Shown here piece by piece: positions 364-63,700 of a stretch of DNA of 64,000 nucleotides. The translations under genes and the position numbers were made by a program. The notes below the pieces were generated by a model, which saw nothing but the letters and a program-made list of their open reading frames with translations, did no database searches and had not been told where the DNA came from. The DNA is from Amoebophrya sp. A120 (lineage: Eukaryota > Protista > Dinoflagellata), in contig CAJINV010000003.1 of assembly GCA_905178155.1 (NCBI GenBank), positions 6,485,691-6,549,690 of the forward strand, in the 5' to 3' direction. Each line of letters begins with the position of its first letter. Position 1 is the stretch's first letter.

Positions 364-1417
364 ATGAGGCTTATCGGGGGAAAGCTCGTTCCGAACGAAG
401 AGGAACAAAGCGCGTCCGTGCCAGTCGAGTACCGACTATGGAGAAGGAAACACCATCCCGACTGCTATTTACTTGCACGCCGAGCTGCTTTGCCTTTTGT
501 ACACAAGAGAGCAATAAAGGCAATGAGTACTACGTATGCACTTTGTTTGATTTCTGCCAAGACTATACTGAATAGAGCGGTGTCTTCTAAACTAAAGAGT
601 CCTTGCCGCATGGGCCAGACGAAAAAATAGTGAGCGGATTGGTTTTTTTCTTGCATACGGCCGGCCAGCGGGCTTCGAGGCGAAGGAGTCCAAGCTGCGA
701 AAACACCGTGATGCCGCCACGGTCGCGGTTTTGTCGTCGCGAGAGCGAGTGTATCCACGAAAAATAAAAAATGTGCGTCAGTGTGGTAGAATGATTTTGT
801 ACTGGGTGAGCAACACACTTTCTCTCATACTGGCTTGTGTCAGGAACAAGAGTTCAGTCTGTCGTGGAGAAGAAGATGCATATCATGGTGCTTTTAGTCC
901 AAGAAGAGAGCTTGAGTACTGCACGACGTTGCACGCTTTTTCCTTGCATAAGGTGCTTCCGGATGCGGCCTTCAACTTGGAGCATGGGTTTGAGGTGCCG
1001 ATCTCGCTGCCGCGAATGCAGGACGGGGGCGCACGGAATGTTGATCCCCGGGAATACAACTACCCGGAGCCGGTGGACCCCACCCGCAGAGCGTTCCCAA
1101 TGACGTTTGGGGGCCCGGTCGCGCAACAGGTTTTTAACACGCGCGCGGGCAACGCGGGGCACTCACCCCTGCGCGCGGCAAAGAGCGCGAACTCAGCGGT
1201 CGCACGGGTCAAAGAGGAGGACAACCTCACCGCCGGAAACCACCCAAAGCCCTTTTACTCTCCCCCTCCCAAGGACCAAGTCGGTCAAGAACAGCTTCTG
1301 GGAGAGACAGCAGACTCGCAGGCCCGATACGTGTACGCAAGGATGACTCCGGCGCAGCTGAAGTGCCGCCGGATCGCGCACAAGAAGTACCACCCGCGGG
1401 CGCAAACGCACTGGTGA
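364..1417 (+). CDS. Hypothetical multi-exon protein
   Basis: GC-rich exon-like blocks (364-, ~660-751, 951-1417); removing insert 752-950 plus 5 nt joins ...LSSRERV|LPDAAFNLEHG... Confidence 0.5.
752..950. mobile_element. Old introner-type intron (TAT...ATA)
   Basis: Left TATCCACGAAAAA vs right reverse complement TATGCAAGGAAAAA; flanks GAGTG/AGGTG; 749-952 is a 204-nt GT-AG intron. Confidence 0.65.
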
Positions 1418-1523
1418 GAAGTGTGTGAGGTAAAGCACGGCGGCGACGAGTTCAGCTATCCGATAATGAAGTACTTGTACAGAAACAAAAATGATTTATT
1501 ACCCCCCTTCTCAGCTCCGAAAA

Positions 1524-2271: not shown

Positions 2272-2401
2272 CCTCTCGGAAAACGATTTTTTTGCTATTG
2301 CTCCCTCCGAATCAACCGGATGCCGTTACGATTACGGTACTAGCTGTTCGTAAAAAGTCTATTTTATAAAGCAGTAAAACTAAAAGTTGAATCTAGTCAA
2401 A

Positions 2402-4274: not shown

Positions 4275-5899
4275 AAATTGCGGTGAAGATACAATAACCC
4301 AAGAAGGACGTCGCCACATGGCTTGAGTAAGTATTGCACGACTTATGGTGCATGAAACGTGAATTTCGCACTACCCTCTCTCTGATGTACCCCGACGACA
4401 ACATACGAGTATTGTGCCGCAGAATGATGTTGCGTGCAACCTCGTGATCCAACAAGCGGCTGCGCGGGTCTTTCTGTGAAAAACGAAACGTCGCGATCAG
4501 CCTACCGCCAGTTTTTTCGGTGCATGTTGTTCAACAACGGAAGACAAGCCTCACACTTAATCGACAGTACGTTTGTTGATCCGCTTCGTTCTCACTCTAC
4601 TCGGGTTTTCGTATTTGAGATCAAATCATTCGCAATGGATCGCTTCTTGTAGCGAAGGATGGAAGTCGCGTTCGTCAGCTAAGAGCTTTTTCTTTGTGAT
4701 CGAAAACCTCTCGTTACACGAATCAGCGCGAAGATGATTGCTCTCGGTCGTACTACGCGAGAGGGCATATCAGCTAAGAAAGTACAGCCTTGCAACACAT
4801 CTCATCCATCGCTCGCATAGTGCATACAAGGCTTTTTTTTGGTCGTCAGTCGTCACTTCCAGAGTGTTTGCTACGGAATCCGTCGTCGAGAATTGTTACT
4901 CGTTAGGAACCACGGACCAACTGCTCCGACCCTGTCCTTGTTGACACGTCAGTCAAGGTTAGTTTGCGGTGCACAGATGTCGTCTCCGTCGACTGCGTGG
5001 TGTTTCAACTCGCAATCGGTTATTTATCTACACAACGAGAGGCTTCGCTACAGATCGCATATTTCGAAGGTACAATGCAGAGATTGGATGCAGAGAGCAC
5101 GGAAATCATTTATGCTTCCTGGCTTCTGATCAACGAACAGAAAGAGCCAGAGCGACTGCATTTTGCCTAGTGGCTCGCGCAAGTGATGGACTTTTTTTGA
5201 ATGAAGAGATGGAAGTATCCGGCTAGCAGCTGCTTATTCCCGTAGCGCAGGCGATCTAAGTGCAAGATGTCGTGGCGCGTGCGGACCGATGAGCCCAAAT
5301 ACCCGAAGGGCTTTATCACACAGAAGAAGACTCGTAGCAAATCACATTTGTAATGCGGAAATATATACGCAGAGACACTACATCGTCGGTGAGCTGGCCA
5401 AGTACAATTAGGCAAGAGAGGGTCTGGTGTATATTTGTTTTTGCAATACAAGTATGTTTGTATTCTGTGCTATTTTTTTTCTGTGGCATAGGGTTTCCGG
5501 AGTCCATGGACCGCGACGGCGGACTATACAATGCGTGGTGGCAGCGCGGGGGGAATCAGATCGCGGAATTTGTAATCAAATAAACACACTTGTTGTTAGA
5601 ACCTAGCCATACGATTTGATGATGCTTTTCATGCAAGGCGGCCTGCAGGCTCGCGCACACATTTGAGCTCGATCTATTAAGTTCTCATCCAGCTGAAGAT
5701 GGTTCGTGCGCGGCCAAAGTAAACCACAGCAGAATTTTCATTCGTCACAGAAGACACATGAAGCGTCGCTGTGGAAGAGTGAGGAAATTGTGCATTCATG
5801 TCTTTTAGTTCTTCACGGGCTTGCAATCGGGCCACAACCTTTGTGGACCCGGCGGTTTATTGTTGAATCAAAACGCTTTTACAGATCGAGAAGGAGCAC

Positions 5900-8719
5900 A
5901 TGTACCGCGCGAAGTTTTCCGCCCCTCCAGAGTGGATAGAAACGAAGCCCTTCAAGGACGTGGACAAAAAGTTTGCGAAGCTCCAGCTCTTAAAAAATAC
6001 GGACTTCCGGAAGAAGATAGGTCGTCGCAAGATGTTGTCCACGGAAAAGCGCGAAGCGGGCGGGTGCAGCGTGCTAAGCGACGGGAGCGACGATTCCCCA
6101 AGCCGGGTCCGAACCTCCGCTGCAGGACAGGCGGTGCCCAGTGCGGTGCTGGGTTCGGGCGGCAGCAGTTCCGTATCCGAGCTCATGAAACTCGAGGAAG
6201 GCGCGACCGTGTCGCCCGAAGAGTTGGCTCGCCGAAAGAGCACACGGGAAGCAGCCAACGATCGGCGGTTCTACAAGGAACGGGGCAGCAAAGGTGTCAA
6301 GTATCTTGCGTTGTATTTCGCGAGGATCTCTTCGAATAGGGATCTTCGAATGCTGCTTTTATACAAGATTTTTAGCAGCCGATATTGATCTTGACTTTCC
6401 CTTCGTAGAGAGTATACGAATCTCAGCCACAGTTGTTGGCGTTGTGGTACCTCTTCAAGAGGATGAAGTAGATCTGCAGACGTTTTATTGAGCATTCTTT
6501 ATGATTTGATGTCGCGTTGGGATGGTGATGGAGGCTAGGAAGTTGTTCATCTAAGCTGTGCATACTCAAAAGGAAATCAAGATGCCTATCGATACTACTG
6601 TCCAAGGAATCGTAACTGGATAAAATTGGAATTGCGCAGGCACCTACAAGTTCGGACAGGAGCCAACGGCAGAGGATCTGAAATACCTGAATCGAACGCA
6701 AGACGAGCGCACCGCTGCAGGAAAGTCGGGAACCTACAGGTGAATAAAGATGAGGTCTGCGTTGGTAGAAGCGCGGCAACTAATTTGCGTTACAAACCAT
6801 GCAAACGGAACTGCGCTTGTGCGACGTGGCATGGTTCGTTATTTCTGGTCTTATTAAATTTCCAAGATACCACTTTTCGTTTTCCTCGACTCGTGGTAAC
6901 ATATCACTAGTGATATTTTTCTTACTTACATATAAGGTTCGACGATAAGTGCACGGAGGACTACTCGCAGAAATGGGCGGAGAAGCCAGCAAATGCCCTT
7001 GCGGACCGAGTGCCTCCGGAATCCGCCGCCGCGTTTGCGGAACTGACAAGGAACAATCAGAATGACCCCAAGCTGCTGAACGAGGAGAGGCGCGTGCTCG
7101 GAAAGAAGACCGAACACAAAATTCGGGAACAGGACGAGGAGCGGAGGCGAAACAACACGAACAGCCGCGGAAGTAGTACCCAATCCACCCGGAAGCTACC
7201 CAGCGCCCAGGGCATTACGGTCGACGTGGCCCAGGAGCTGTGGTACCTTGACCCGCTCCCCGAGGCAGCGTTCGAAAGAAGCACGAGCTCCACGGCCCCG
7301 AACGCGCATAGGAACGCGAAAAAAAAGAAGAAGAGTGACAGCACCCAACTGCTTCCCGGGGCGTTAGATGCGGAGGCCTGGGTGAAACCGGATCTCGACC
7401 CGGAGCGTGCGAGCGCAACTACGACGAGTACCAGTTTTGTCTTTTGCTTGTTAAAGTCGTGTGAGGAGTAACGCTGCACTTCCTATTTTCTAGAACATTA
7501 CGTACAACAGCAGCGTTGCAGCAGTGTTAATGGCCATGCATGTTCCATGATGGAGAAAGCATGCGCTCATGATCAATCACTGGCAAAATCAAACAGACTT
7601 GCGGGGCTCAGCGAAATACACGCAGCATATCAAAGTACCGAAGCACTTGAGGCGAGAAATGATGGGAATGAAAAAGGGCGGCCCGCTCTTACCCTACAAG
7701 GCTCTCCAGCGGCTCACGACGTACAGCGACCTGGACTATTCGCTGCTGCGAACGGTACTTTTCGTTTTCCTTGTTCTTTCGACGGTGTGTGTAGAATCCA
7801 AGACCAGTGGGTGGTGCGGAGATGAATTTGTAGTTTGCACTGTTTTCAAGAGCGAGGAAAGAATTCCTTGAAGCAACTGAAAAGGAAAGGGCGCTGCGTC
7901 CGCAGGACTTGGCCATCAAAGTTGCTTCTGCATATTTCTCGGCTGACTCACTCTTACTTTTGTTTCTAACCAAACAGGACCTGCAAGAAGAGGTGAAGAA
8001 GACGGGGGAAATTAAGCAATATTTCGATCGACATCCATATTTTCGGAAAGGGCAGAGGTCGAGATTCTACAACAATAGTAACCGCGTCGCAGAGCTCGTG
8101 CACGCAGGTAGCCTATTCTTTCAGTGTTTTCAGTAAGAAAAGACCCGCAGATTTTCATCATCTGAATAGTTTCTCTTCTCGGAGAGAGTTGGTTTCCTCT
8201 AGGGCATCAAGAGAAACTGGCGAGGAACGAAAAACTTTCGGAGAAAAACAATAAATAACTTGCAGGGGCGGCAGAGAACTTCCCAGGGTGGGATTCAGAC
8301 GCAAAACAGTATCCGGGGTATCCGTTCTATAATGAGGAGGACGGGCGGGAGAGGGACCCGTTGCGCAAGCACGTAGGCGAGGACACGTTTGCAGCATGGG
8401 ACAAACCCCTGATCAGCGAACCGAAGGAGCGCCAGTTCTCGAAGCCCACGGAAAAGATGCGGATGCTCGAAAAGCAGTTGCTAGCGCAGTCCCAGTATCC
8501 TGTGCAAAAGCACTGTCGCAGCCGTACAACATACTGCATCAATATTGTGTGACAAATGTTGATTTACGGTCACTCTCTCGACCATTGATTGCTGTTTTCT
8601 TGAAAAATGAAGAGTTAGTATTGTGCAATCGATCCGACGACCAGGCAGAACTACTCGTGCGACGATGCTTTTGCCTTGCATACCAAGCCCATATCGGACG
8701 CGTTCCCACCGGACCATGA
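5900..8719 (+). CDS. Hypothetical multi-exon protein
   Basis: Successive + strand exon-like ORF pieces (5900-6300, 6369-, 7010-7430, 7570-7755, 8340-8505); no domain recognised. Confidence 0.5.
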
Positions 8720-9742: not shown

Positions 9743-10588
9743 ATGACCGAGTTAGGCGTTTTGCGTGCAAAACAAGCTCGTGATGCTTGCTTGCACTGCC
9801 TGCAGGGCGGTACTGTGACAGTATCCTGCACCTTGCCCTGCAGCTCGCGAGCGAGACTTCCAATACGACGAGCGCATCCCAGTTGTAGCTCCAGCAGTGT
9901 TGCGAGAAAGTTTTGCAGCGGCAGGCCTGCAGCCGCGGTGCAGCCGGACGGCAGTGGCGAAACCCTTTTGTCCCTTGAGGCCCGTGGCGACGAGTCTATT
10001 GTGTACCCTGTTGCGCTGAAGACATGGGAGTCAAAGCAGCACTTCGCCCGCAATCTGCTCGCGCGACTGTCCGGCATCAGCGAGAGGGACATCCGCCCGT
10101 TGTTTGCGAAGGAACAGCTGCGCGCCATCTATGAAAAGGCGGAGTTGGCGGATCGGCGGTTTTTTGAAAGGAAGCACGTATTATATTTGGCAAAATTTGC
10201 GGAGAAACTACTGGACGAGCGAAAGAGCAACAATGCCCTCAGCATAAACAACGCAACCATTCCCCTGCCCGAACTGCACAGCATTCTAGGTGAGGAGCTG
10301 CGACGCGCAAAGGAAAGCGATGGCTGCACGCTTGGTGCTTCAGCGGACGGAGAAGAGACCAAGGCTCATGGTCAAGAAGCGCCGGATGGTGCGCGGCCTG
10401 CTGGAAAGACCGACTCATCGCGTGCAGTGGCCACGCCCGTTCCGTTTCTCGTGAAGAAAGATCGCAACCTGCGCGTGGTTCGTATTGTGCGTAAAAACGT
10501 CCCCTCCTCAGAGTCAAGATGGACACTGAGCAACCTAAATCCAGAAGTTTTGGGAGTCACGCATGAAAAGTTGCTGTCTGGAGTGTAG
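9743..10588 (+). CDS. Hypothetical protein, single exon
   Basis: Long ORF (9623-10588), first ATG at 9743, Arg/Ser-rich N-terminus. Confidence 0.5.
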   Translation: MTELGVLRAKQARDACLHCLQGGTVTVSCTLPCSSRARLPIRRAHPSCSSSSVARKFCSGRPAAAVQPDGSGETLLSLEARGDESIVYPVALKTWESKQHFARNLLARLSGISERDIRPLFAKEQLRAIYEKAELADRRFFERKHVLYLAKFAEKLLDERKSNNALSINNATIPLPELHSILGEELRRAKESDGCTLGASADGEETKAHGQEAPDGARPAGKTDSSRAVATPVPFLVKKDRNLRVVRIVRKNVPSSESRWTLSNLNPEVLGVTHEKLLSGV

Positions 10589-10729
10589 GGCAGGTCAGCG
10601 AGGGCAGTCGCATCACAGACCCATCTGCTCCTCCTGTTTGCAGCATTTCAGAAATTGAAAATAAACACGACTAGAAAAAATGCGTCTCATGATGAGGATG
10701 CGCATTGCGAATGTTCCACGATCCTGTAG

Positions 10730-13700
10730 ATGCAAAAACCATGCGACTACAATTCTGGGATTGGGACGTTTCTCCGCCGGATAGTTCGCAAGCTCGCATT
10801 TGCCATGGAAGAGCAGCGGATGCGTCGGTCGGACGTGCGTAACAATGTTGACGGCTGTACTAGTAATCAAGATCATGCGAACGTGGGAGGACCCACCTCC
10901 TCGGAGGATGAATTACGGAAACGGCTACTTGCGTCCTGCCGAACGATTATTCAGGAGGGTTTGCGGAGTTTCGACGAGGCAATATATTACAAGTGGAGTC
11001 GTCCGAAATTTTCGCCGACTGAGGCTGATCTGCCCGTGGGTGAGGATCTTCACTCCACTGGATCATACAATTCTGTGGATGATGAAGAGGATGCTAGAGT
11101 GCCTAAAGCTGATGATGCGGCAAGTAGCGGTGGCGGGCCGGTGCTGGTGGAAATAGAGGCATCTTCTTCCCAGGGAGAGGTCGACCTACAGATGAAGGAA
11201 CTACGTGAGCCGCCCCCAGGCGACGTCGACGAAGCGTACTTCCAAACGAAAGAGGCGGGAGCGCGATCACTTCGAGTGCCGCCGGACCAGGTAACACGGC
11301 AGGAGGAATTTGCTATGCGAAAAATCTTCGACGCTGAGCTGAAGGAGTTTTTTCGGGCACGCAGGACGCAGGAGCAGGAGGAAGACGCAGGCCAGAGGAC
11401 GAGTACAACAGCGGAGCTTAGTCAGGAGGAGTGGCTGAGCTCAACGTGGCCACCGCGTCGGTTGCGGGAACTCGTGGCTCCGATCTCCAGCGCGGTGGCT
11501 TTTAGTTTGGAGAATTTCGCTTCTTCTGAGGAAGCAGCAGACCATATTAACCATATGAGTAATGCGGCTGCAGGAGTTGTACCAGGGAGGGGTAGTCGTG
11601 CTTCGTCGTGTAGTAGCGAAGATGCCGACGTGGTCCAGAGAAGAAATCAGTCCGGACAACAAGAACGGCCGTGGTCTACAAGGTCGGGTGGCCGGCCGCA
11701 CAGGCGGCCAGGACCAGTGATGGTGCCGGAGAACATCAACCCGGACTGGGAAGAAGAAGCCCGGCGTGTCGCGAAAGAGCAAATCAAGGAGCAAGAAGCG
11801 CGGTTGCTTGTCATGTGCCAGAAGAAGCATCTGCGGATGCGGCTGCGCGACGAAGTTCGGCGGCGCCGGGGCGGGGACGATCCGCCGAGTTCGGAAGCGA
11901 TTCACATGGCACTCATGGAGATTTTCGTGGAGACCGGGACGGGAGCAACAGTGACCGCGGTCACGGATGAGGCCTTGTACGCGAAGCTGCAATCAGCGGA
12001 GGCGGAGCTGCGCAAGCGCCGCGCACTCGAGCAGGTCCGGAAGAACCTACGGGTGTGCGTATCTCGCCGCTACGGTGCCGTTTTGGATTTTTCCCAACTT
12101 TTGCAGGTGTGGTCGCGAGACATGCAGCAACAGCTCTTGATCGAAGCAACCCTGCAACTTCACCAACCTGGGAATGCGGTATACAAGTGAAAATACAAAT
12201 ACTTAGATCCATTATTTAGGGCGGAAAAATCGGCAAATATCATCATTTTTGCAAGCGCACTTGTTTGGGGGGTAAAAAAAGGTTTTTTGTCGGGGGCGGA
12301 ACATCTTGGAAGCCGACACGCCTCGCGTGTCACTTCATCTTTTCCACAGGAAACATGATAGCTGAGCTTCGGAGATGCCGCAACACCAAGACCAGAAGCA
12401 GGCCACAGTGCCTTCGCTCTGTGCGTTGTCGCTCAGATGGCCGGACGCTGTGTCGTGGGCCCGCTCTTCGAACAGTGGCCGGGCCGCCTCCCTGACCGGG
12501 GCTCGACGAGGCCCTTCGCCCGGAGAAGGAGGCCCGGCCAGGGGAGGTGGTCAGGGGGGTGCATTTTTGCCCCTCCCGGACACCCCTTCCGGGCACCCCC
12601 TTCAGGCAGCTTTGGGGTAGCCTATGCCGACCCCCTCATCCCCATTGGAAACTGCCGATTTTGCGTGCCCAAAAAAGGTAGCCCAGAGGCAGCCCAAGCC
12701 GACCCCCCTACTCCCCCCCCTTCGGCACCCCCCCGGAAGCACTCGACTGCTGGCGCGTCCGCCTTCTCCATATCCGGTCGGAGAGGGAGGATGAGAAGAT
12801 ATGTGGGCGCGTCCGGAATTGAATGCAGGACATTGGGTGCGGCATCCCGCGCCAGAGGGCCGCAGGCGGGTGGAGCTTCAACAAAGTCCGGCGGTTTTAT
12901 TGGAAAAAGGGGAGGGCCGGATGGCGGACCGTAACACCGAAGTGCGGCGCCAACATCTAAATGGCCAACAGGAAAAAAAGCAGTACCTACACCCCCAACA
13001 GCCAGAATCTTTTTACCCCCCCAAAAAGTGCGCTTGCAAAAATGATGATATTTGCCGATTTTTCCGCCCTAAATTATTTAGAAGATTTAGATTACTGCAT
13101 GTGGGAAAATGTAGTGGCATAAATATGGCTACGTAGTTTTTCGAGAAGAAACCTGCTGCTTCATGCCGAAGAACCTTATGCTGTGCCAAGAAAAATCTCT
13201 TTTCCAGGGTAAGGATCTTGTTGCCCTGTTGCGATACCAGATCGATAATTCGCTGCGACTGCCAGAAGTTGCGGAAAAGCTGAGATTGCTCGTGCACTCG
13301 AGCCTGAAAAATCAGATGGCTGCGGAGGCGTCCAAAATCGGATTGGCCTTTGATTCGGCGGAATGGGACGAACAGGTAAAAAAGCGAATTGATTTTTAAA
13401 GAAAGGCTCGCGCTTTCTATGCAAAGTAAACACCTGTCCGCCTCGGCTTTGTACTCATCACTTTTGTGAAGTAGCTTTCCGTGCGTTCCCCTAAAAGTTT
13501 TAACATACGAGTAAATTCAACACAGAAGCTCGACCGTGTTGCAAACGTAATGGCGAGTGCGTACCGAAAAACGAAAGTCTTTGACCAGGCTCTTGCGAAG
13601 AACATGATACGGAGTCAGCTCGTTACGCGATCGGACGACAAGACTACGACTGCTCCTGCGGGGCACCGGTCAGCAAATCTAAGTCTCGGCGGAAGAGAAG

Positions 13701-43598: not shown

Positions 43599-46500
43599 AT
43601 GAACATGTCCGTCGGCGAGGAAGTAATGGTTGGATCGGGATCTGGAGATGCACTGGCCATCTCCGCCATTCCGTCGGAGACGTACAAAACGCACCCTGCC
43701 GGTGAGGGCGACAGTAAGGAGTGCGACTGGGCTTTGAACGGGTTTCTCATCCCGCACTCCGTCGCAATATCTTGTGTAAAAACTTACCGCCCACCCCAGA
43801 CTTGTCATGCGTTTTTGCATGATGCCGGTAGTGCCCAGAACACTTCTCATGCGGCTTCGCATGGGAGGGGGAGGCGTTGTCTATTCACCTTCTGGAATTC
43901 CTCACACGCTAATGTTATTGTTGATTTGTCGTGTAGCATCATGTCTCTCGTCTTGACTATGGGGTTATGTTACGTTTTTCAACAGGATACGTAAGGATGG
44001 CTACCTACGACCTGCTTGCCGCTGTCAAGGCCCTTGAGGCAAAGGGCGTTTCTGGCGAGAGTGCGACCCTGCTGAAGGACTGGTACAAGAACTATTACCT
44101 GTACGGAGAAGAAATAAAGCCAGCACAAACACTATCACTACATTAGATTTTGCATGATGATGCATGGATGTACCATTGAGTTCATCGAGGATTCTGCCCG
44201 GATTCCGGACAGATCGAAGCTAAGATCACGCATAATTTTTTACGCCTGTGAGTCACACACTTTCGTGCTCCAGAAGAAACAGTAGTGGACTTCCTTGAGT
44301 TGTCATGTTCGTATGGACTCATACAGACATACTTTCGTCTACAGACAAGCAAAGTGACGACGTGATGGTGGTGGATTTTTCTCGTCTGGATAGCTGCTGC
44401 TTCGTGCACCACCACCACCGCAACGAAGAGACGATCTACTTTCCCTGGCTTTCCGGCGTTTTGAAGGAGAAGGGGATTACCTCTCTGCCACCGCTATTCC
44501 GTGTAAAAACGCTAACGCGGTTTATGACCGCTCTGTAGTGAAGATGTTGGTCGCGCCCGTGCAAAAGAGAGTGCGTCAGTCTCTGACGCGTTCGCTTACG
44601 AAAGACAGTTTTTTATTATATGTTTTTGTTTTGAGTTCTTCGTCTTTTTGAAAATAAAAGATGAAGAACTCAAAAAGAATTTTTCTACTTCGTCATCTTC
44701 TGCTTTTTGCTGTGCCCGAAGGAACCACGATGGATAGGAATACCTAAGTAATCTTGAAAGATTCTGGGTCCGAACCTTCTGTCGCGGGAAATTTGCAGTA
44801 CTGCAAAAGCTGCAGCTGCTTCTGGATTTCTATAGCAGAGCTGACATCTTGACTACAGGGCGAGTCACTGTGTGCCATGGGGATACTTGCGCATCTCCGA
44901 GCAGCATGATGATCTGATGAAACGCATGGACACTATCGAGGCGCAGACCCAATCCCTGGAAGAATTTGCGCTGAAGGAGCCAGAGAAAGTTCCTGCACTG
45001 GTAAGACTAAGTCTAGCTCCGGAAGAACACAGTAGACAGACTGTAACATGGAGCAGCTGCGTCTCGTTAAGAATGAATACTGATAAATTATTTGCGCATA
45101 AACTACTTCTACTCATTAATTTCCTCGGAGCCACATGACTGCCAGAATAAGGGTTTTCTTCTTGAGTGATTGTTTGCCGTGTTTTATTCCGTGTGTTGAG
45201 GAGTGATGGCTGCATTCCTTCGCTCTGTTTGCGAAGAAGAGTGTACTGCTGAAAATTGGAAAGCTATTAGATGACGGGTTAGATGAATAGGGGTCGTTTG
45301 GATTCCGGGCGCGGTTTAAAAGGGTCCGGTGGGGGGTTTCGGGATGCGAACTAGAGGACAAACTAGATGGCCTCCTCCCCCATTGGACCTGGAGCAAGCA
45401 TCTGCAACCGGGGCCCATCGTTCTGGCTTTTGGGGTGTCCGCTTTTGGTTTGAAATGTCAGGGCGTGGGATAGTTTTCCGTTTCTCCAGGTCCTCACCCC
45501 GCCAAGTCGCCAGGTTTTGGCAACCGTCTTCCTTGCCGCGTCTGTTTTCATCTTTTCCCTTGGCTGTGGTCCTGGGTTTGGGTAATTTGTAAATTAGCCA
45601 CCTTCTATTCTCCAGTCAGAGTCTTTAGGTCGCCCGGGCCTGTCTCCCTGGTCTCGTGGCCCTGGCGCGGGCGGCGGGGGGCCTCTTCATTTTGGGCCCC
45701 CCGCGGAGCTTGCTGGTTAGCTGCTGTGCCACCCACGCCCCTGCCGATTGGTCGTTTCGCTGCTGTAATCGCGCGCGGCGCACGACTCGCCCGCGACGGC
45801 GCACACCCGCCCCCCCCGCGGCCGGATTTTCATCACAAAGGAAGCGCGCGGCCGCCCAGAGGGGCGCCGGCCCACCCGGCCCCCTGTGCGGGCGGGGGGG
45901 CGGGCCAACAGTGCGGGACGTTTGTTTTTTTCTGCCTGGTCGTCCTGGAGGTGGGGGGGCGCGCCACAGTTCTGGCGCTCTGTTGCGTGTTCGGCGATCA
46001 AACCTTTTTCGCCCGGCCCCGCTTCTTCGGTTGCCTCCGGGGATTTCTTGTTCCCGAATTTTGGCTTTTCTCCGCTCCAGGGGAGGGAACATAACGAGGA
46101 GGCGCAGGGAGGCGAGGCCGCCGGCCGCTCCATTGGGGCGAGGCCGGGAACATGGCGCGGGCGTCGCCGTTCGCGAAAGTAATGGCACCTAGCCAAAGGC
46201 GCAGCGGCCGCCCTCGCATGATATTGGGGCGCGCGACGGCAGGCCAAGGAAGCATACACGCACACGAGCCGACTTTCAGGCGACCTGCCCGGCGCCCTCT
46301 GGCTGGGCGAGCGCTCCGGGCGCATTGACTGGGAAGCGTGCGGCCACGCGGTTGCGCCAAGATTGCGCCACCCTGCCTGGGAAAGGCGCGCACGAGGGTC
46401 ACTTGCGTGCATTCCAGGCTTTTTTTTGCCGGTGCCAAAGGCCCGCGTCGACCTTTACTTCGCCGCGGCCAGGTGTGTCGTATCCCGTTTTCTCAAACAC

Positions 46501-52514: not shown

Positions 52515-54174
52515 TACCGACGTGGGTCGCTTTATTTCACAGCGTGAAAACAAGAATCGACTCGAGCTGAAAAGGACTTCGAGTCTTTAGGCAAGAAGTA
52601 GTGCGAATCAGTTTTGAAAGTAGTCATCGAGCTGTCAGTTCATAAATTGTATAAATTACGCATGTACAACAGCGCAAGTAGAAAGGCAAAGGAGCAAAAA
52701 AAACAAAAAAGCATTATGGGACGAGATGACAGTTCGATCAGAATTGATGTCATTTTAGCAAGACGATGAAGATGTAGACTCGCTTTATGTGTCTTCGACT
52801 TTTTTTTTCTGCGCGGTTCTTACTTCCCGCAGATCTCAGCAGGTGAAAGCGCTCTATTTTGTCGATCTCTTTACTCACTTCTTCGCGACAACGCGTAGTT
52901 CAACTTCCTGATGGTGACATTCCCCACGCGCGCGTTTTATTTTCAGTATGGCAAACGGACGAGATCTGTGCTTTGCAGAAGGCGAGAGTGTTGATTATTT
53001 GTCGTCTCTTCTGCTAGCCTTGCCTGCCATATCTACTACTAAGCGCAAGGCGGATCCAGTAGTTTAGTCTACTGAGCGAAAGGCGAGTATAGTTTAGTAT
53101 AGGACTGAAAGGCGGGCTTGTAGTTTTTTTTTTTCGTGCTGGAACTGTCTGGTCCCTGCCCAGCGGTCAGTAGAGATCAAATGGCAGATTATATATAATC
53201 CCTCTCGCAGGTCTTGCTCTTGGCCTATTTTGATTCCAGTTTCGTGTACTTTGTGTTGCTGTAATTCTGTTGTTTCATCGCAATACAAATCGCCATGCAA
53301 TTATTAAGTGACCTTTTTTTGATTTTTTTCTAGCTGCGTATTAGCACCTGCGCGTGTTGACCGCCGAACAACACTGGAAGGCTCGCAGTCCGTCTAGTCG
53401 AGCACCTAGTGCAGAAATCTCATCTATAGATATTTTTTTATACGAGTATTTCACGGTAGCTACAGCCCGACGCGCGTGCGGAACCGCAACAGGGTGGGAG
53501 ACACAAAGTCATGGCGCTGTGTAGCAGAGGCCGGTCGTTGGCCATGGTGTCCATGATCATAGTTGGATTCTTAGGATGGCCTCTGATCGCGCATGGACGG
53601 ATGTTTGCCCGGGTACCGGCCGGTTGTATGGGAGTGAATCGAAATCGAACCACCGCGTTCGCACTGCCCTTGGGATGCTAACCCGTTGTGTCCTTGCATT
53701 TTGCATTTATTTTCGTGTGTCGCAGTAAAAGAATGGAGCAAAGGTGACAAGCAAGCAAGAAGTTTAAGAAAAATCATGTCCCGAAGGAGTTTCACTGAAT
53801 GTTGAACGTCTGACCTCGCAAACGCATCATGGAAAGCACGAATGAAAAACATTCGCCTGCAGCTGTGCCTGCGAACGTGCTTGCTGTATGGGGCCCTTTG
53901 TAGATTATGCCCAAGCCCAAGAGCGGGGAATCATTTAGCAGATACATCACAGATGAAGCTGCTCGAACGTTCCTCTGCAGCAGCCTCTCTTTCATGTTGA
54001 AAGTGGGTTCTTCGAAGAGAGGTAAATAGAAAATAACTGGAGCGGGACCTAGCAGGCATGCTCTTTTACGTACTTGATTGCGCCAACCGTTAAATCTTTT
54101 GCATGAAACTGTGCAAGACCTGCATGATTATGCTCATGTGCGAGACCTAGACCGCACCTTCTCGTATCTTCTTC

Positions 54175-55928
54175 TTGTTTACTCAAGGACTACCAGTGCA
54201 GGGCGTGGTCTTTCACTTGATACGCTCGGGCGGCGGCGCACAGAGTCGTAGTGGCTCCCCAGCATCGTCGTCGGAGGGTAGCTCCTCCACAGGTGACACG
54301 AGCTCAGGCAGCGCCCCGGGCCAGCCACGAAGCAGTCGCACGAGCACGGAGCAGACGACATTGGAAGACGGCATCGTGGAATTTCTAGAAGAATCTCTGT
54401 GTTTCAAGGACCCCCTCCAGAAAGAGTGCTGCAACCCCTGCTGCGGGGCACCGAACGGGGATACGCTCAAGCAGGCCTTCAACCCCGGGGAAGAGTGGGG
54501 TTTGCTCCCAGCCCGTCCCCCCTGCGATCGCCGGCCGAAAGTAACACGGGAACAGCAACATAGTGCGCTGGTCGGGGAGCCTACAACTGTCGTAACACCT
54601 TGAAGGCTGATCTCACGCGACCCTGCGTAAGGGAAACGACGATGGATGAGTACAAGTTTTAGGTTCGCGCCATGATCTGCACACGGACGTCAGTTGTGCG
54701 TGTCGCTACCAGAGGCTGGTGTGTCCGACTACTCAGATCAGGAGGACTTTGCAGTTCGCCTGGTTTTGTGCAAGAAGGTTACTGGCCGTCTAGTGTAAGA
54801 TTTCGCTTGCATGCATGAGAAGCGACACTTTCTCCATGCTTCTAAGTTTAGTAATTGATGATGATGGTATCTATAATTCTTGGTATAGATGAAATGCTTT
54901 TGCTGGAAAACACGTTCATCATCTTCCTCTTGCGTTTCGGTGGCGAGGACAGTTTTCATTCCGATACTAGGCCGAAGACCCGGGCCGCCACGTCCCTGGG
55001 AGCCGGCGCAACCAGGCCTTGCCGGCGGGCGACCAACCATTTTGCCCTGACTTGGACCTCTGTGGCGAGGACCGGCTACCTCTCTTATGTTGCGGTCGAC
55101 ACCACACCGTGTTTCCGTGCGAGAATATCAAAGTGAAAAAAGCCCCCACCCCATACTGAAAAGACAATTTGTGATGCTGGATTTGTGTAAACAAAAAAAG
55201 CTCTGTGTTGCAGCAAGAGCTCGTCGGCATATTCTAAGTCCATTTGGTTACGCATCCGGCTAGGAGCTGCGCATGAGAAACAAGTCTGACATAGGCGAAA
55301 ACGTATGACAGACTGGCTGCACAATGCGCCACATGGGCGCCGTTTGCCTTGTACGCAAGACAAAGCTGATTTGTGTTCACAAATCAGCATCAGAAGTTTC
55401 CTTTCCGATATGGAGAGGGGGGATTTTTCCTCACAATAGAGAACTACTGCTGCGGGTTGACGCTCAGTGACATTTCCGCGGAGCCGTATTCGCCGAAGCC
55501 GCAGTGGCGGTGCCCGGGATATGACAATGAAAAATGCCCCACTCCAGAACGTGGCAGCATTTGTATTGCAAACTTTTCCAATTGTAGAAACATTCCCCGT
55601 CTTGCATGTATCGGCATCACAAATTTTCCATGCTATATGGATCAAATTTGTGTTGCAAAGGAGCGCAACAGCAGCCGGATCTGTTATGCAAAAGATACCT
55701 TACGGGCCTAGGTTCTGCATCAGAAAGGCTCGTAGTCCTTTCATGCAAGACAAAAAGCTTTCACTTGGAAACTTTGCATGAGAAACTTTTGCAAATTCCG
55801 CGGTGGGGGCATTTTTCATTGTAATGCGGGAGCTTTCGAAACCTGTCACAGCAATATCGTGCAGAAACTTTTTCCCAATGCCAGCCCAGCCTACGCCTCT
55901 TTCTCTTTCATGAAAAAGCAATGCTAAT
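54175..55928 (+). CDS. Cys-rich hypothetical protein, multi-exon (may be the 5' part of the next gene)
   Basis: ECCNPCCG exon; removing two introners gives HTVFPCENYCCGL...WRCPGAFETCH. Confidence 0.5.
55126..55438. mobile_element. Family-1 introner MITE
   Basis: Family-1 TIRs (GATATGGAGAGGGGGGATTTTTCCTCACAATA); perfect TSD GAGAA. Confidence 0.9.
55520..55826. mobile_element. Family-4 introner MITE
   Basis: 17-bp perfect inverted ACAATGAAAAATGCCCC; perfect TSD CGGGA; frame restored. Confidence 0.9.
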
Positions 55929-57736
55929 GCCTTGAGGAGGCGGAGGCCACAAAAAAACTTTGCGAGGTTTTTCTTGATGACGCAATTTCAACACTAAGCG
56001 TAGGCAAAAATATGGACTCCTTGAGGTGTGGGTGTGCCTAACTGATCGAATAAGTAGTAGGCACATAACAGGCATATAACAAGCCAGGACTACACAAAAG
56101 ATAAATATGACCACGGGCAGCCGGCCGGTATTAATTCGTTTTCCTGTGCGATATGCGAAGAGGTGCTCAAAGAATGCTTCGCGGACGGGGGCTACCTCCG
56201 AAAGGCTGCCTGCACATGCCCCTGGGGGATCGGTGGTTCCCAGTACGAGGCCATGTCGCCAGTATCCGACGACGAGGTTGCACGGGATGCGGAAAGTGGC
56301 GCTCGACGTAGACCCCGACCAAGTATTTTTATTTTTCTGTTGTTGTAAGTAAGTGGATGCGGATACTGATACTTTTTGTTGCTGGCGGGTCGATTTGTTC
56401 TTCAGCGCTAGGAGCTCCTGTTTCTCGTCAGTGACAGTCTCGAGCATCTTCCAGAACGGGTCGGTTTTCCGAAGCGTTTTACTACGAAAATTGATATGAT
56501 TTTTCAAGCCCTTTTTTATCGTCATGGCTTCAAGATCATCTACCTCATGGGGAACTGTGAAGCGCTGAGGCTGACGTTGATGGTGCACCATTTGCAACTT
56601 CCTTGAGACCTCACTGTACGTGATGACAGAACAAGATGACTGGCCGTGCAGTATGCTCAATCTTGTGCGAGCACCTCAACCATCGCCTTCCTCTCTTAAC
56701 AACTACAGGACCGCTCCTCAGTGGAGCAGCATCGCATCGCACCGCGGCAGTGATGCCGCGCGGCTCCGTATGGAGAAAAAAAGCCGCCGCTACAAAAATC
56801 CTTAGCAAGATGACGATGAGATACTTGTCTTGCACGTCGACAACTTTCTGTTGTATTGTAGCAGCGCAAGGATACAGAAACTATAATCAGTATATGTTTT
56901 TCAACAACAACGAACATACATGCAGTCATTCAATGAATGCAATAGAATATACCTATGCTTTGGTAGTAATGCATGGTTGGTCTTGTTTTTCGTATTCGAC
57001 AAAAAAGTTGTTACAGTGACACCCTTGTAGTTGCACCAACTTCAGCAACTACACAGACTTTCTCTGCATCACAGAGGGACTTGCAATGCAAAGATCATAA
57101 GGGGAAACATGTGTGTTGCGCTGCTTGATGCAAGCATTTCCGGCAGGACAAAACTTGTCTATCTTGCTGCGTTTGCAACACAGTGTGTAACTGTAACGTT
57201 TTTCTCTGTGCATTTTTCGCGCATACGGGGGAGCAGACGATCAGCTGGCGGCCGAGCGCGACGCGGTGGTGGACGGGATTCGGGAAAGACTGGAGGCGAG
57301 GTTCCAAATATCCTGAGTAAAAAATAAGTCCCTGCTCCACAGTCAAGATGGAAAATCTGAGACACAAGCGCAGATGCTGTGGAAGTCACGCATGACTACA
57401 AGGTTAGCTAGGCGGTGCCATCGTGCCTAGGTGCTAGTGCAGATGACGCGTTGTAATGGAGTCACCCTGGTTAATATTCCGATGAACGCATGAAAAAGTT
57501 GCAAACGCGGCAGGAAAATGCCTCTCGCGGAGAGCCGCATGAGAAACACCCTCCGCATGCAGACTTTTTGTAGAACATAAAGATTTTTTCGATGAGGTGC
57601 TGTCGGGGAAGCATGGCTCTTTAATATAGGGCAGGGATGTTTTTATTTAGGATGCTGCAGGGACGACCGGCGTAGTAGAGCCGAAATCCAGGCACTTGAC
57701 CGCCATTATGCGCGGAGTCCGGGTTGTTGTGACGAC

Positions 57737-60700
57737 GTGTGGGCACTTCCAGCCGCGGTTCGTGGAGTAGCTTTGCTCGCGAGTGCCACATTGCTCGGCG
57801 CGCCAATTTGGCTGGGAGCCGTGCTGCTTGAACCCCCGGTATCTGTCCTCTTCGGTCTAGGGCTATCAAATGCAAAAGTGTCTGGGTCTGGAAGATTGCC
57901 AGGTTTGTCATGCATATTTTGCATGGCCCATGATGCCTGTAGTGCATGACTTAGCACCACAGATTTTTGGAAGGCTTCCTGATGCCTATTCCGCATGACA
58001 AATTCCTGATGCCTATCCCGTCGAAGTCGTTCGGACTAGGTTTATTACCAAAGTGGCGCCAGGGTTGTTATTTTAAAGACTGCGCTAAGGCAGCACCCCC
58101 CCTTCCCCAAGGGGCCCCCCGGGGCGGGCGCGGTGGCGGCTCTGCTAACGCGGAGCTCCAAAGTCCGACTCTACCTATGCGCATAAAAAGGGTGCGCGGA
58201 AGCAGGTCGGTAAGGTGCTTGAAAGGGGCATGCTTTGGGGTTGCCCGCCATCGTGATAGGGTCAACGTGTGTGACCAATAGGCCCCCAGTATATCATAGC
58301 GCGCAACCGACCACAAAAGCAGTAGCGTTTAACGTTTGTAAGAATAACCCCGCAAGGCAACACTGGAGCTCCACCTTGCTCGCGGGCTTGGATGGTAAAT
58401 CAGGTCAGCCACATCTAACGCCCACTGGCCGTATACACGCGTAAGAAATCGGAAACGGTTCAGCGGATGCGGTCGGGTGGTACCTGTAGGACGTGGAACG
58501 GGTGTCCACCTAGGGGTATTGGCAGAGGCTAAATCTGTTCTAACGCCACGGCATTGGCAGAGGCTAAATCTGTTCTAACGCCACCCTGACAGGAGTCAAA
58601 TGTCAAAACGATACGATACGATACTCGTAGCACAATCTGGCCTCCTCTTGCTGGTCATGCAATACAACATTTTGGAATCCAAAGACAGCATGACAAGTTT
58701 GGATCCTTCCAGACCCAGACATATTTGCATTTCATAAGGGCGAGCGACTTGCAATCGATGTTCCACGCTGGACTACAGACACTCTGCCAAGCCGCCCATT
58801 GTCGATCCCGCGTCTTGGCTAGCAGGCGAAAGCGATCTTATGGAAGGTGAAGAGACCAATGCTGAGGAGTCGGACGCCGAGGGTGAAGAAAAACTCGATG
58901 ACCATTTGCGCGTTGTCGGGAACTTGGAAATGATGCGATGGCTGGACTTTTTGCGGCAGCTCTCTTGGCTTGCAAACCACGCGGTGCCCCAGGATTTGTA
59001 CCACGAACACGCAGTCAATTCAATGCAGAACGCAGTGCACGCTGCCAGCTCTATGTTGGGCGGCGTTGTGCGCCAGTTCTCCGGAGCCGCCTCCAGCGCG
59101 GGAGGTTCACAGCCGCGGGCGATGGGCGGCGCAATGGCCCCGCGAGTGCACAACGGCCTGGTACTCCGGCGCCGTCAGAGGAACAAAAGGTTCACCATTG
59201 CGAGTTTTCCACAAGACACGCAAACTGAGCAACAGCAGGCCGGGCGCGCGAGTGCAAACGACATTCGGAATCCGACCCTTGCCGACCAATATTACGATCC
59301 TGAGTTGTATGTGCAGACGATGATGGATGGACGCAGCAGCCACCGCAGCTACTTCACAAACGACGAGGAGAAGAAGCTGCGCGACGTCGTAAACCCTGAA
59401 GGTGCGGCGTGGGGACCATGGCTCACGACCTTGACGGACGACCGTTTTTTTCGGAACGAGTTTTTCATATCATTTGGAAGAATTGCAATTTCCCGTGGCT
59501 GCACCACCCAATCAAACAGCTATAAATACGGGATTTAGATTATCTGCGTACGTCGACGCGCGCCAATGAAAATGAACACTAGGAGATGCTTGTTTTTGTT
59601 CCTTTCGAAAAAAGTTTAAGTAGATGGAGATTGTTCGCGCAGCGAACACGCTCCTTTCTCACGAAGTAAGTAGAGAGGCACGACGTGCAGGCTAAGCACA
59701 ATGAGGGGCCGCGTTTTTTCACATGGATATGTCAAAAAACGCGCGACGCTTGCGTATTGGGGGGTGCCTTTTGGTGCAGTTTGATACTTCAACAGCGAGG
59801 ACCACTGGAGTGATCTGTTGCAAAGCCTGATGCGACTACCGGAGAGTACCAATGCCGAAAAGCACTTTGCGCTCCTGAGTCCCTTGGCCTTTCTCCACTA
59901 CGAAAATCGCCGTTTGGGAAACGATATGCAAAAATGCAAACATATCTGGATCTTCATGTGAGAAAGTAAAGGCGTGTCGTAATACTGTCGTCCTGAGCGT
60001 GATACAAACATAGGTGCGACACATGGCCCACAGACACAAAGTATTTAATATTTTGCCGCTCCTTGCTTTCATCTGTCGGCGTTAGGCTTGGGCACCATCT
60101 TTACACATTGAATTTTGCCTGTGCGCAGAGGCCACATTTTTAGGACTTGGTAACTAGACTGAGGTGCCGCCCATGCTGTTTGGTCTGATGGATGTTTACG
60201 CGCGTAAGCGGTCTCGACGAATTGGTTGGACATACTGTGTGGCTCAGCCGCTGGAGGCGGCGAGTCGGTCGAGAACCTTACGCGGCCGCAGGTGACTGAG
60301 ATTGGCACGACCGTCGTCGAGCCGGGAGGGATGCCGTATAGGCCTCCTGTCCCTATTCTCTTGGTCTCTTTCTGCCCACCCTGACTCTGACCCCTTCTAG
60401 GGCCAGACACGTCTTGGCCTCCAATGAGGCGTCAGGAGTCTTTCTGTACGGTCTTAGTCTTGCCACGGCACGTGTGCACGCATCCTGACTACAACGCACC
60501 ACCGCCCTTCCAAGAGTATAGTCTAGCTCACACCAGAGCCGAAGGCTATGTGTGCTCTAGGGGTGAGGCCCACTGCCCGCCCCGCCACTTCTGAAGGACG
60601 CTCGCGGTGCGTTTCAGCGTTAGGGTGTGTGCTCGCGCACCACCAAACGGCGACCCAGCTCCCCTTCGGGGGTGGGGGCCGCTGTAGGCATCCATCGGTC

Positions 60701-63700
60701 CGTGAACGGACGAAGACCATACAGTATGGGCATTGGCACCTGCATAATAGTTAACCCTCTGCGCAGTATTCCGCGCAGGATAGATGATGATGATGATGAT
60801 GATGATCCTGTGGACGCCAGCCGTTACTCACTTCCCAACAGAGGTAGTGCGTTTGCATGGCATAGGCGAGCTGCAGCTCGAAGAGTGGGAGGGGGATATG
60901 CTCGGCAAGGGCATGAAGTTTCACGTGCCACTGCAGCTCGTTGTGGAGTACGAAAACCTGCTGCACGCAATCCCGAAGTATCCAGGAACGGATGGGTGGA
61001 TGTATTCCCTTATCACAGAGGAAAAGCTAACATACTTACTATCTATTTCCGCGAGCAATGAAATAATAACGCATTAATTCTTTGTGTTTGTCAGAGAGGA
61101 CGAGGAGGGCCAGGCCGCCATGCCGTAGGATAAATTGAATAACACGCTGTTTCTTTCAGCTTCGCAAGACAGAGTTGTTTTCATTTTTGCATATCCACCC
61201 TCGTGTAGCCTACAAGTGACGCTCTCGCTGTTCACCTGCAGGGGTTCTGGGTCCCTCAACATTACATTGACCTACTTATTTACCTGGTGGATGTTGGCGG
61301 AGGTCCATGCTCTGTCAGTTAAGTGTGTATTTTATTTCATGTTTACATTACGTGTTGCCATCAACATCTTCAAGTAATATGTACGCGCTTTTTTCTCTGG
61401 GATATCCCGCGCCGATCGCAGATTCATAGAGGGGTAGTTAAGTCTAGACTTTTCCGTTCCTAGAAAAATTGCCGCCGTCCGTCTATCGATTGTCTCTGCG
61501 TTTTTTGTTGCCGGTCGAGCACCACGATCATTTACTACTTGTTGGTTTTTTTTTTCCAAGAAAAAGGTCGCTCGTACCAGGGCCTTGAACCATTGACGCC
61601 AAGCCCAGGCACGAGAGAAAGAAAGAAAGAAAAAGGTTGCTCGGATCAATTTGATACATACAACAAGTTGTATGCTTTGGCTTTGCAGATCTGCATCTTG
61701 GAAGAGCTGCCTTGTCATCTTGCGAGCACCCTGAGCACGAAAATGATCTATGATGTATGTATGTATACATAGGAAGAATTTGAAGTGAATGTTGTCGCTT
61801 AGATGTGATCATATGAATCAATAATAATTTAATCTGATGCATGATGTCAGGAAAGGGAAAGGCAAAAGCTGCACTCAGGAACGTGTGCAATACCATTTTT
61901 GAATTCGCAATTATATTTCAGACTTGACCAATTGAATGCCAGACTGAATTTCTTTCTCCAACCATTTGCAGGCAGGAGCATCCGGATTTGCTTCCCGTTC
62001 CGTCCGGAAAGGCGGCTGCAATGGCGTTGAATTTCTATCTGAATTTGGGCAACAAGAGGTTGTATCAAATGTAAAAATGAAAATGTCTGGGTCTGGAAGA
62101 ATGCATGCATATTTCTCATGACCCATAATGCCTGTAATGCTTGAACTAGCATCGCAGACTTTTAGAGGGCTTCCTGATGCACCTTCCGCATGAGAAATGG
62201 CCCGTCTGTGTAGCAAAAACTGTACCCATTTTGCTGGTCATGCAATACAATTTTTTTTAGAGTCCAAAAACAGCATGACAAGTTCCAATCTTCCAGACCC
62301 AGACATTTGTACATTTGATAGGCTGGTAGAGAATGTGATGCTGCAGTTTATCCGCCGAGAGGAAACCGGTTCTCGGGACGATCGAAGGGTAAGCCGAGAG
62401 CTGATCACCGCCCGGCAGACCCACCTGAACAACCCCTACGCTGGCGGCCGCACGGAGAAAGTGCATACTAAGTTCATTCTACGGGGCGTGATGGGGTTTC
62501 AGGCCATCAAGCAGGCTTTAGCGACGCCGATGCTGGAAGGCATCTTCGAGCAGTTTGACCAAATGATGACACAGATAGACTCGCGCACCCGTGAGGACCA
62601 GGGACGAAGGAGAAGAGCCAAAACCGTTGAGGAACAGCTGCGCCACCGTGGTTGGTACTGTCCCATCACACAGGAGATCATGCAGGATCCAGTGGTTCTC
62701 CAAGTTGATTTAGAGTCACTGGGTGCCCAGCTAGTTCCTTCGATGGTTGGGCGCGTTGTGCAGGGCGGGAGCACCGTTGCTACGGGTATGGCGCGATGGT
62801 GGTCGGCCCGCCGGGACGCACCTGACGAACCGACAAGGGAGTTGGAGGACCAAGAAGAGCTGGAGGACCAGCAGGAGGCTGGCAACGTCGAGCAGCCATC
62901 GTCCCGGCCGGGTGACGGTTCTGAGGACGACCGCCGGAACTTACCGGAGGTTGAAGCCCTCTACGTGTCCGTGCGCCCTGGCAAGCTCCGCTATCCAGCA
63001 GTTCACGACAATAATGTTTCCTGCCCAGAGAAGGCAGCAAATTCATCTGAGAGGGTGTTGATGTAGTCGGTGCGAAGTTCTTTCTATTTGGTTTTAGAAC
63101 TATATGTTGCACTTTCACATGCGTTCTCTTACGTACGTGGTATAAGTAGATAGTACACAGGCTAGCGCGAGACACGCTTTAGACGTGTTTTGAGGTCTTC
63201 CAGGCCTACCATGCAAGCAGAAAGCGCCCTCCGTTATAGACAGGCGCACAAATAAGACGGCAGTCGGACCAAATCAATGTAACACAGTAGCCGTTGCAAT
63301 TGCTACTTCGGCGCGACGTCGACAGGGGCCGAGTCGTATAATCGAACTTTTATCTGCATATTTGCATGCTCCTGTCCCTGGCAATGGCAAGTTTGCATGC
63401 TGCGTCGCCTCGGCATCACTGCTCAGATAAAAACCGCAATAGCCAACCGAGACCTCGGGCGGGGAACGATTTTCATACGATAGCCTCCCCAACTACATCC
63501 AGGAGGGTGCGGACATGTGGATTCCGCGGCAGCCACACAAACATGTCTTCGAGAGGCACGCCATTGAAACCCACCTGAGAGCGTATAGATACGATGCTTA
63601 TATTTACTTAGTTCGCTGCTGTTCTTCTTTTTCACAACTATTGTCAACCCGCTCGTCGTGTTCTCCAGGTGTTTGTAGACTTTAAGTCAGCTGCATCAAC

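Follow-up and report, generated by a model that had tools for sequence, protein, structure and literature searches.

Genes and elements in the window

The stretch of DNA analysed here, called the window, comprises 64,000 nucleotides (nt) of Amoebophrya sp. A120 (contig CAJINV010000003.1, positions 6,485,691 to 6,549,690), and its genes carry short transposon-like inserts, which are members of the published A120 class of introner elements. The modelled genes are all on the + strand, and GT-AG introns are interspersed in them with inserts that run from TA to ATA. The exon at 50421-50705 matches P0001, a protein named Amoebophrya sp. A120, at 100% identity, and the spliced model of gene B is identical to this annotated protein across 364 amino acids (aa). 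These two identities place the elements in the A120 genome.

The elements total about 37: 16 were assigned from direct joints in spliced contigs, 9 from contig span and open frame, and 12 from DNA only. An earlier note on this DNA had counted about 24 inserts ending in ATA, with one ATG. The inserts are real and most end in ATA, but the count is higher and the ends include three ATG and one AGA.

RNA-level data consisted of four contig sets (X3-X6) from one sample, aligned to 43560-63559; two of these sets, a DNA-like run and the raw RNA run X9 were also aligned to 44001-64000. The contig sets carry the label "RNA?", no run being recorded as RNA, and they were treated as spliced because plain GT-AG introns are skipped in them. 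A contig of the DNA-like run, possibly the source of the assembly, is unbroken across 44001-50127 with the elements in place, and the inserts are therefore present in DNA. Twelve candidates upstream of 43560 lie outside the RNA coverage. Eighteen joints were examined, namely 15 listed rows of 30, two pairs of adjacent contig pieces and one loose end. The elements with direct joints are as follows (TSD, target-site duplication).

43768..43989, +: TAT..ATA, TSD CGCAA/CGTAA; intron 43767-43993, joint 43765/43993
44102..44392, +: TAC..ATA, decayed TSD ACCTG/GCTGC; intron 44101-44396, joint 44100/44397, unique -1/+4
44495..44885, +: TAT..ATA, TSD ACCGC/CTTGC; intron 44494-44889, direct joint
46979..47265, +: TAA..ATA, perfect TSD GTTGC; intron 46978-47269, direct joint
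47361..47699, +: TAT..ATA, perfect TSD GCTTC; intron 47360-47703, direct joint
47741..47995, +: TAT..ATA, TSD TCCGA/ATCGA; intron 47740-47999, direct joint
48051..48412, +: TAC..ATA, TSD CGCCG/CACGG; intron 48050-48416, direct joint
48450..48679, +: TAT..ATA; -1/+4 intron 48449-48683, also GT..AG, direct joint
50093..50414, +: 322-bp family, perfect TSD GTGAA; intron 50092-50418, direct joint
50707..50985, +: TAT..ATG, fully decayed TSD CGCTG/ATTCA; intron 50706-50989, joint 50705/50990, unique -1/+4
51209..51374, +: TAT..ATA, TSD CCGAG/ACGAG; intron 51208-51378, direct joint
51560..51856, +: TAT..ATA; intron 51559-51860, unique -1/+4, also GT..AG
51969..52277, +: TAT..ATA, TSD GTGAA/CGGAT; intron 51968-52281, offset 0 excluded
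53627..54222, +: 596-bp element TAT..ATA, TSD GGTTG/CGCTC; intron 53626-54226, adjacent contig pieces 53624/54226
55126..55438, +: 322-bp family, orientation opposite to 50093, perfect TSD GAGAA; intron 55125-55442, loose end 55125 in X6
57864..58736, +: 262-bp family, carrying an internal insert of 638 bp; perfect TSD AGGGC; intron 57863-58740, adjacent contig pieces 57858/58737

Excision in a fixed register

The earlier note had observed that deleting an element and 5 nt restores the frame in the cases checked. The spliced contigs agree: at 16 of the 18 joints exactly a TA..AT(A/G) element and 5 nt are missing, as expected of A120 introners, which are spliced out of mRNA; the other two are plain GT-AG introns. 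Random joints with equal ambiguity fitted 0.11 times on average, with a maximum of 3 in 20000 trials.

The position of the cut can be placed only where the two duplication copies differ. A single register fitted all 16 element joints: the intron is N-TA...AT(A/G)-NNNN, beginning one base before the element and ending four bases after it (-1/+4). This was the sole possible placement at three joints (44101-44396, 50706-50989 and 51559-51860), and none of the 16 excluded it. The mirror register -4/+1 was excluded by 10 of the 16 joints, and 0/+5 by 5. At the 50707 element all five duplication positions are mismatched and the offset is still -1/+4, indicating that the cut is positioned by the ends of the element and not by the repeat. 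Two relatives align collinearly across this junction with no extra residues, and one relative aligns in the same way across the junction of the 51969 element. The fixed offset, independent of an intact duplication, is a point absent from the earlier note.

Splicing in this register yielded stop-free frames of 307 aa and 385 aa, against 149 and 301 when the element alone was removed. The 385-aa product has an NAD-binding match, and the 307-aa product appears hemerythrin-like by reading of its His motifs.

In the third gene, gene C, exon lengths were fixed by contig coordinates, and the best chains that follow the rule came to 3310 nt, the same as the contig span, and have a frame of 1023 codons. 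Its nine elements were chosen using the rule and are hence not independent evidence for it. The model is ambiguous at one gap with two near-equal solutions, and for another gap there are 234 loose solutions, the high-scoring element at 61011-61404 being part of one of them.

54593..54966, +: TAA..ATA; -1/+4 intron 54592-54970 is GT..AG; best fit to contig span and open frame
55520..55826, +: TAT..ATG, perfect TSD CGGGA; contig span and frame
55855..56153, +: TAT..ATA, TSD AGCAA/TGCGA; contig span and frame
56769..57225, +: TAT..ATA, TSD CTCCG/CGGGG; one of two near-equal solutions plus profile scan, less certain
57309..57654, +: TAT..ATG, TSD CCAAA/CTGCA; contig span and frame
59468..59786, +: TAT..ATA, TSD TTTCA/CTTCA; span and frame
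59925..60864, +: 940-bp element TAT..ATA, TSD AACGA/GGCGA, no Pfam domain; profile, span and frame
61011..61404, +: TAT..ATA, TSD TCCCT/TCCCG; profile, span and frame
62063..62320, +: 262-bp family, TSD GGTTG/GGCTG; contigs resume at 62324, 94% identity to a copy in metagenome stretch L079

When the end of the 59468 element was set at 59729 instead, neither one nor two middle introns led to a solution with an open frame. A 68-bp TAG..ATA stretch at 61126-61193 falls within the 61011-61404 intron, in the model that matches the contig span.

Several of these introns have internal features. Intron 51559-51860 contains, at 51682-51806, an inverted repeat with perfect 62-bp arms around a loop of 1 nt. 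An (ACCT)n run occupies 50720-50790 in the 50707-50985 element, which is still spliced in register. The 638-bp insert of the 57864 element (58004-58641) takes the place of a short stretch in other copies; it is repeated by depth and has no Pfam match. At 62272-62320, 130 reads of raw RNA run X9 match this terminal inverted repeat (TIR) alone, with another flank and no junction; an abundant transcript from another locus appears to carry this element end.

Elements recognized in DNA

A terminus-agnostic scan of the window gave 3043 TIR-like pairs, nine of them with an exact 5-bp flank. Seven of the nine are TAT..ATA, one of the seven being an assembly duplicate. With a terminal profile derived from copies outside the window, 24 window pairs scored at least 34, against 0-3 in five shuffles. 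Shifted-register controls on DNA alone showed modest contrast (6 against 0-3 and 11 against 0-5). All seven perfect duplications of the earlier note were found at elements listed here (CATTT, GTTGC, GCTTC, GTGAA, GAGAA, CGGGA and AGGGC), and three more were added: GTTCG, TCCGC and AGGCG. The candidates known from DNA only are listed below.

437..657, +: TAT..ATA, TSD CCGAC/CGGCC; terminal profile
752..950, +: TAT..ATA, TSD GAGTG/AGGTG; terminal profile
5314..5490, +: TSD GGCTT/GGGTT; terminal profile, frame test non-discriminating
8496..8682, +: TSD CCCAG/CCAAG; terminal profile
10483..10783, +: perfect TSD GTTCG; deletion of element plus 5 gives a 656-codon frame, +3, +4, +6 and +7 give 431-486
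30486..30832, +: TAT..GTA, TSD CTGGC/CTCGC; terminal profile
33377..33679, +: ends AGA, not ATA, perfect TSD AGGCG; element plus 5 keeps the frame, a nearby GT..AG breaks it
34195..34517, +: 322-bp family, perfect TSD CATTT; assembly duplicate at 35533-35855
37977..38234, +: perfect TSD TCCGC; exact-flank TIR pair
38722..39011, +: TSD GTTGC/GCTTG; terminal profile
40085..40490, +: TAC..ATA, TSD GGACT/GACCA; terminal profile
41012..41291, +: TAG..ATA, TSD CCCCG/CCCAG; deletion removes an in-frame stop

The CATTT element was counted once. It lies in a 402-bp segment (34150-34551) that is identical at 35488-35889; the two copies flank a gap of 555 N and are probably an assembly artefact, and unrelated sequence follows the first copy at 34552-34930.

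Matches to families in the metagenome stretches described below (L001-L146) were found for 9 of 31 window sequences, and the older ones are singletons. Depth sums in the DNA run reached about 100000, compared with about 45 in other bins, which reflects repetitiveness and not copy number.

Machinery of excision

U+2, A+3, A-7 and U-6 were kept in 25/25 modelled introns, A-7 even where its pairing partner is not T. GT..AG, the borders of U2-type introns, occurred at the exact -1/+4 register in only two of the 16 introns with direct joints, and in three of all 25. Where the intron-side duplication had changed at +1 or -1, the new base was G in 7 of 9 direct cases (p=0.008), compared with 2 of 19 at inner positions; over all 25 modelled introns the boundary count was 10 of 14. 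This drift to G at both boundaries of old introns hints at the spliceosome.

Published data on the genome bear on the same point. Nearly all spliceosome proteins are present in A120 while U1 was undetected (Farhat 2021, PMC7789003), and a relative with GT-AG introns has U1. In strain A25, non-canonical introns start with TT and have free ends, and the inverted repeats (IRs) start with TTA (PMC7789003), which again gives T at +2 and A at +3.

The strong rival to the spliceosome is excision guided by structure, of the kind suspected for the nonconventional introns of Euglena: pairing of the TIRs would make a stem, and an endonuclease and ligase would cut one base outside its 5' end and four outside its 3' end. 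The register would then be tied to the stem ends, and the first terminal pair is indeed U-A or U-G in all 25 modelled introns. Old introns keep the 5' A-run and the 3' T-run equally (46/70 each), which suits end pairing more than a one-sided tract. Intact hairpins also seem to tolerate single terminal substitutions, the lack of a detected U1 fits this route, and Euglena offers an analogous N3/N5-6 code (PMC12501133) with circular products (PMC11282704). However, 7 of the 15 direct introns that were folded have near-zero predicted end pairing in register and are still spliced there, and the boundary drift to G and the GT..AG borders at the same register need an explanation that the spliceosome does not require. 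We consider hairpin-guided cutting possible, though the less probable route, and judge spliceosomal excision to stand at about even chances or slightly above. Under the latter, A-7 is the predicted branch nucleotide.

Target duplication and TIR families

The comparison assembly was a set of metagenome contigs scanned for TIR patterns, giving at least 146 stretches (L001-L146); the 80 listed share one assembly prefix and may not be of the window's strain. Among 165 copies paired by TIR regardless of flanks, 142 had an exact 5-bp TSD, and 4 bp or 6-10 bp was found in none. A terminus-agnostic scan of these loci gave 327 matches at 5 bp, of which 251 begin with TA and 248 with TAT; among those listed, matches at other lengths of direct repeat were either shifted versions of these elements or internal palindromes. 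The copies fell into 15 families. When 13 TIR groups were re-paired by TIR alone, exact 5-bp flanks were found at 257/320 pairs, with almost none at other lengths; the probes for the small families were taken from 5-bp matches, which makes this test partly circular. Target 5-mers were varied, with 214 distinct among 249. These results support two proposals of the earlier note: an origin from TIR DNA transposons that make 5-bp duplications, and several TIR families sharing one architecture. An any-frame test on the loci did not distinguish +5 from other lengths (222-230/234), and viral contigs scanned with two TIR patterns gave no matches.

Ends of the form TAT[CG]...AAAA are common to the families, which diverge after base 3 of the TIR. 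In 14 of 15 families the internal motif T[GC]TNATGC, picked after inspection, has a density of 8-17 per kb, whereas window exons have 0.41 per kb and the remainder of the loci 2.61 per kb. By inferred strand, 15 copies in genes are opposite to the gene and 11 have the same orientation; the window copies at 50093 and 55126 are in opposite orientations. [quoted passage not shown]

The transposase

No transposase domain was found in 96 open reading frames (ORFs) of the window and the long locus elements, or in 34 ORFs of a 6.2-kb TAT..ATA pair in stretch L060, which is probably a chance pairing. The long window inserts matched nothing in Pfam or in three PDB searches. The earlier note had stated that the window holds no autonomous copy, and the domain search agreed; no cognate autonomous element was found in the window or among long candidates taken from loci of about 0.5 Mb in total, a 3.9-kb pair in L040 having been scanned in part.

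That note had further proposed one transposase for all the elements. The uniform 5-bp TSD across families is in favour, and we think it likely that a single lineage acting in trans mobilises these elements. The claim does not extend to the whole genome: A120 also has a Mutator-like introner family (family 65) with an 8-9-bp TSD (PMC12130899), so that one transposase cannot cover every introner.

As for its type, an integrase-like enzyme on the GingerRoot/IS3EU/Ginger side is our first choice, at somewhat less than even chances, some other type is doubtful, and hAT5, the candidate of the earlier note, is a little less probable still. The hAT5 proposal has in its favour the 5-bp TSD, which defines hAT5 and is uniform here, and the matches of some dinoflagellate introners to hAT5 terminus models (PMC12130899). 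It is opposed by the absence of a hAT domain from the 96 and 34 ORFs, and among 58 A120 rows of the published table the sole hAT5 terminus match is fam135, which is classed otherwise (PMC12130899). Moreover, A120 introner family 38, a TIR DNA element annotated "5-bp TSD, TA/TA Termini", is 808 bp long, has ORFs with partial Copia/Gypsy-integrase-like homology and is described as lacking Ginger termini and TSDs (Gozashti 2025, PMC12130899), and TA..TA ends are typical of IS3EU and GingerRoot. The hAT5 assignment is not supported. The elements are assignable neither to hAT5 nor to IS3EU/GingerRoot.

Alternatively, unrelated mobile elements may have converged on TA..ATA ends and a 5-bp duplication because only such insertions are spliced cleanly, with no single transposase. 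The divergence of the TIRs after base 3 suits this, as does the assignment of A120 introners to diverse transposable element classes (Gozashti 2025, PMC12130899), and a splice rule would filter exon insertions. The shared TAT[CG]...AAAA ends and internal motif, the latter not obviously needed for splicing, and the one TSD length in 13 groups argue against convergence, which we regard as improbable.

Proposed mechanism

The reading towards which we lean is that short non-coding transposon copies leave the RNA at a fixed offset, taking one duplication copy with them, probably through an altered spliceosome that reads the element ends. The copies show that insertion creates a 5-bp duplication of varied sequence, of a length common to many TIR families. 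Removal of the element plus 5 nt, as seen in the spliced contigs, adds no residue, and the -1/+4 register survives complete decay of the duplication, as at the 50707 element. A single transposase lineage would probably supply the movement in trans. The last step is an evenly balanced proposal taken as a whole: the TA of the element may replace positions +2 and +3 of the GTA donor found in ordinary introns, a U-rich tract may come from the TIR A-run as its reverse complement, branching may occur at the A that lies seven bases before the end, and distance may set the 3' cut, with end pairing assisting in young copies. Since the ends are symmetric, an element would act as an intron in either orientation.

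A fuller version is offered tentatively. In A120, where U1 was undetected, a remodelled spliceosome may process most introns, ignoring both border dinucleotides and using N-UA...AU(A/G)-NNNN as a ruler, with the branch at A-7. It would be tuned to the 5-bp cut of one integrase-like transposase, making any insertion, in either orientation, a scarless intron.

Several observations weigh against this reading, besides the equal retention of the A-run and the T-run. The register comes from three genes, one sample and contigs only. The enrichment of G at the boundaries is a small test made after the fact. No transposase was found, and the support for its lineage and type comes from element architecture and a single row of a published table. 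Strict invariance does not hold for the terminal letters: the window element at 33377-33679 ends in AGA, and while 294 of 309 copies in the comparison assembly have TAT..ATA termini, 15 are terminal variants. Five of the seven with inferable strand break TA..AT(A/G), the strand being taken from ORF length only. Sorting of the variants by gene strand failed, with two that fit, five that break the rule and eight without a strand call. Finally, one large family in the published A120 annotation has T+2 in 6681/9716 and A-2 in 6598/9716, and in Table S4 of Farhat 2021 (PMC7789003) T+2 stands in 18/18 top motifs and A-2 in 8/9 of those for A120. These counts are symmetric, and the published tables therefore do not favour -1/+4 over -4/+1; we infer that the symmetry reflects aligner placement within the duplication, and it lends no support to -1/+4 itself.

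That splice sites truly vary within the direct repeat, or that removal occurs at the DNA level, with the fixed register an artefact of few joints, is very improbable: the Fig. 3 legend of Farhat 2021 (PMC7789003) does call the sites variable and our data are 16 joints from one sample, with 15 of 30 joint rows listed, but the three unambiguous joints are all -1/+4, none excludes it, the DNA contig retains the inserts, and the spliced contigs also skip two plain GT-AG introns.

Other features of the window

An 857-bp element at 12216-13072 has 86-nt TIRs (87% complementary) and an exact 5-bp flank ATTAT; its TT..AA ends set it apart from the TAT class, and the domain search gave no transposase for it. 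The GT-AG intron 45001-46890 contains an insert at 45210-46850 that is rich in GC and about 1.55 kb long, with a flanking direct repeat of about 45 nt, short inverted ends and background DNA depth. The window starts with low-complexity tandem repeats (1-194; units of about 14 and 21 nt). Few confident elements were found in 14000-30000. Long single ORFs at 14054-16408, 19939-20493, 26547-27590 and 29497-30687 have SET, cold-shock, methyltransferase and thioredoxin-like matches.

Comparison with known systems

The introners of A120 and A25 described previously (PMC7789003) resemble the elements in having IRs that start with TAT and end in a stretch of A, and direct repeats at the borders, with a 5-bp example in Fig. 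S19. In that description the direct repeats are 3-5 nt and variable in position, and the splice sites vary and lack a clear signature; in our data, 5 bp is the only duplication length and one offset fits the cut. The single duplication length across families and the fixed -1/+4 offset are thus additions to the published class. Farhat 2021 (PMC7789003) rules out general mobilisation by a transposase, and for more than 60% of A120 introns it leaves the splicing route open and calls the sites variable and signature-free. In the Amoebophrya intron literature searched, with figures S19-S23 and subscription journals outside the search, we found no statement of a fixed register. If the offset holds genome-wide, it would explain the apparent variability as alignment slippage within the 5-bp duplication and would allow gene models to be corrected, and it gives exact positions for a test (donor UA, A-7 and the cut at +4).

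Family 38 of A120 (PMC12130899) shares the 5-bp TSD, TA/TA termini and TIR DNA architecture, but has Copia/Gypsy-like ORFs, whereas the elements of the window yielded no trace of coding sequence. IS3EU and GingerRoot have the same TA..TA ends but 6-bp TSDs, and exact 6 bp was found in 0/165 copies here; hAT5 shares the 5-bp TSD (PMC10045372, PMC6839031, PMC12730594).

The MITE introns of Fritillaria borealis (PMC13326754, PMC11282704) are likewise transposon-derived and escape GT-AG, there with a modified U2 spliceosome. Their borders are AG-AC or AG-AT, U1 is retained and U2AF is duplicated (PMC13326754), whereas in A120 the borders are free and U1 was undetected.

The nonconventional introns of Euglena follow the code 5'-N3CDG..CHG N5-6|R (Nomura 2025, PMC12501133) and, like the elements, have complementary triplets at a fixed distance from non-GT-AG borders. 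The triplets are CAG/CTG with spacers of 3 and 5-6 in Euglena and TAT/ATA with spacers of 1 and 4 here; the elements show no purine rule after the 3' border, and they lack the euglenid motif. If the offset holds genome-wide, A120 would be a second case, beside Euglena, in which splice geometry equals the transposon ends plus one target duplication.

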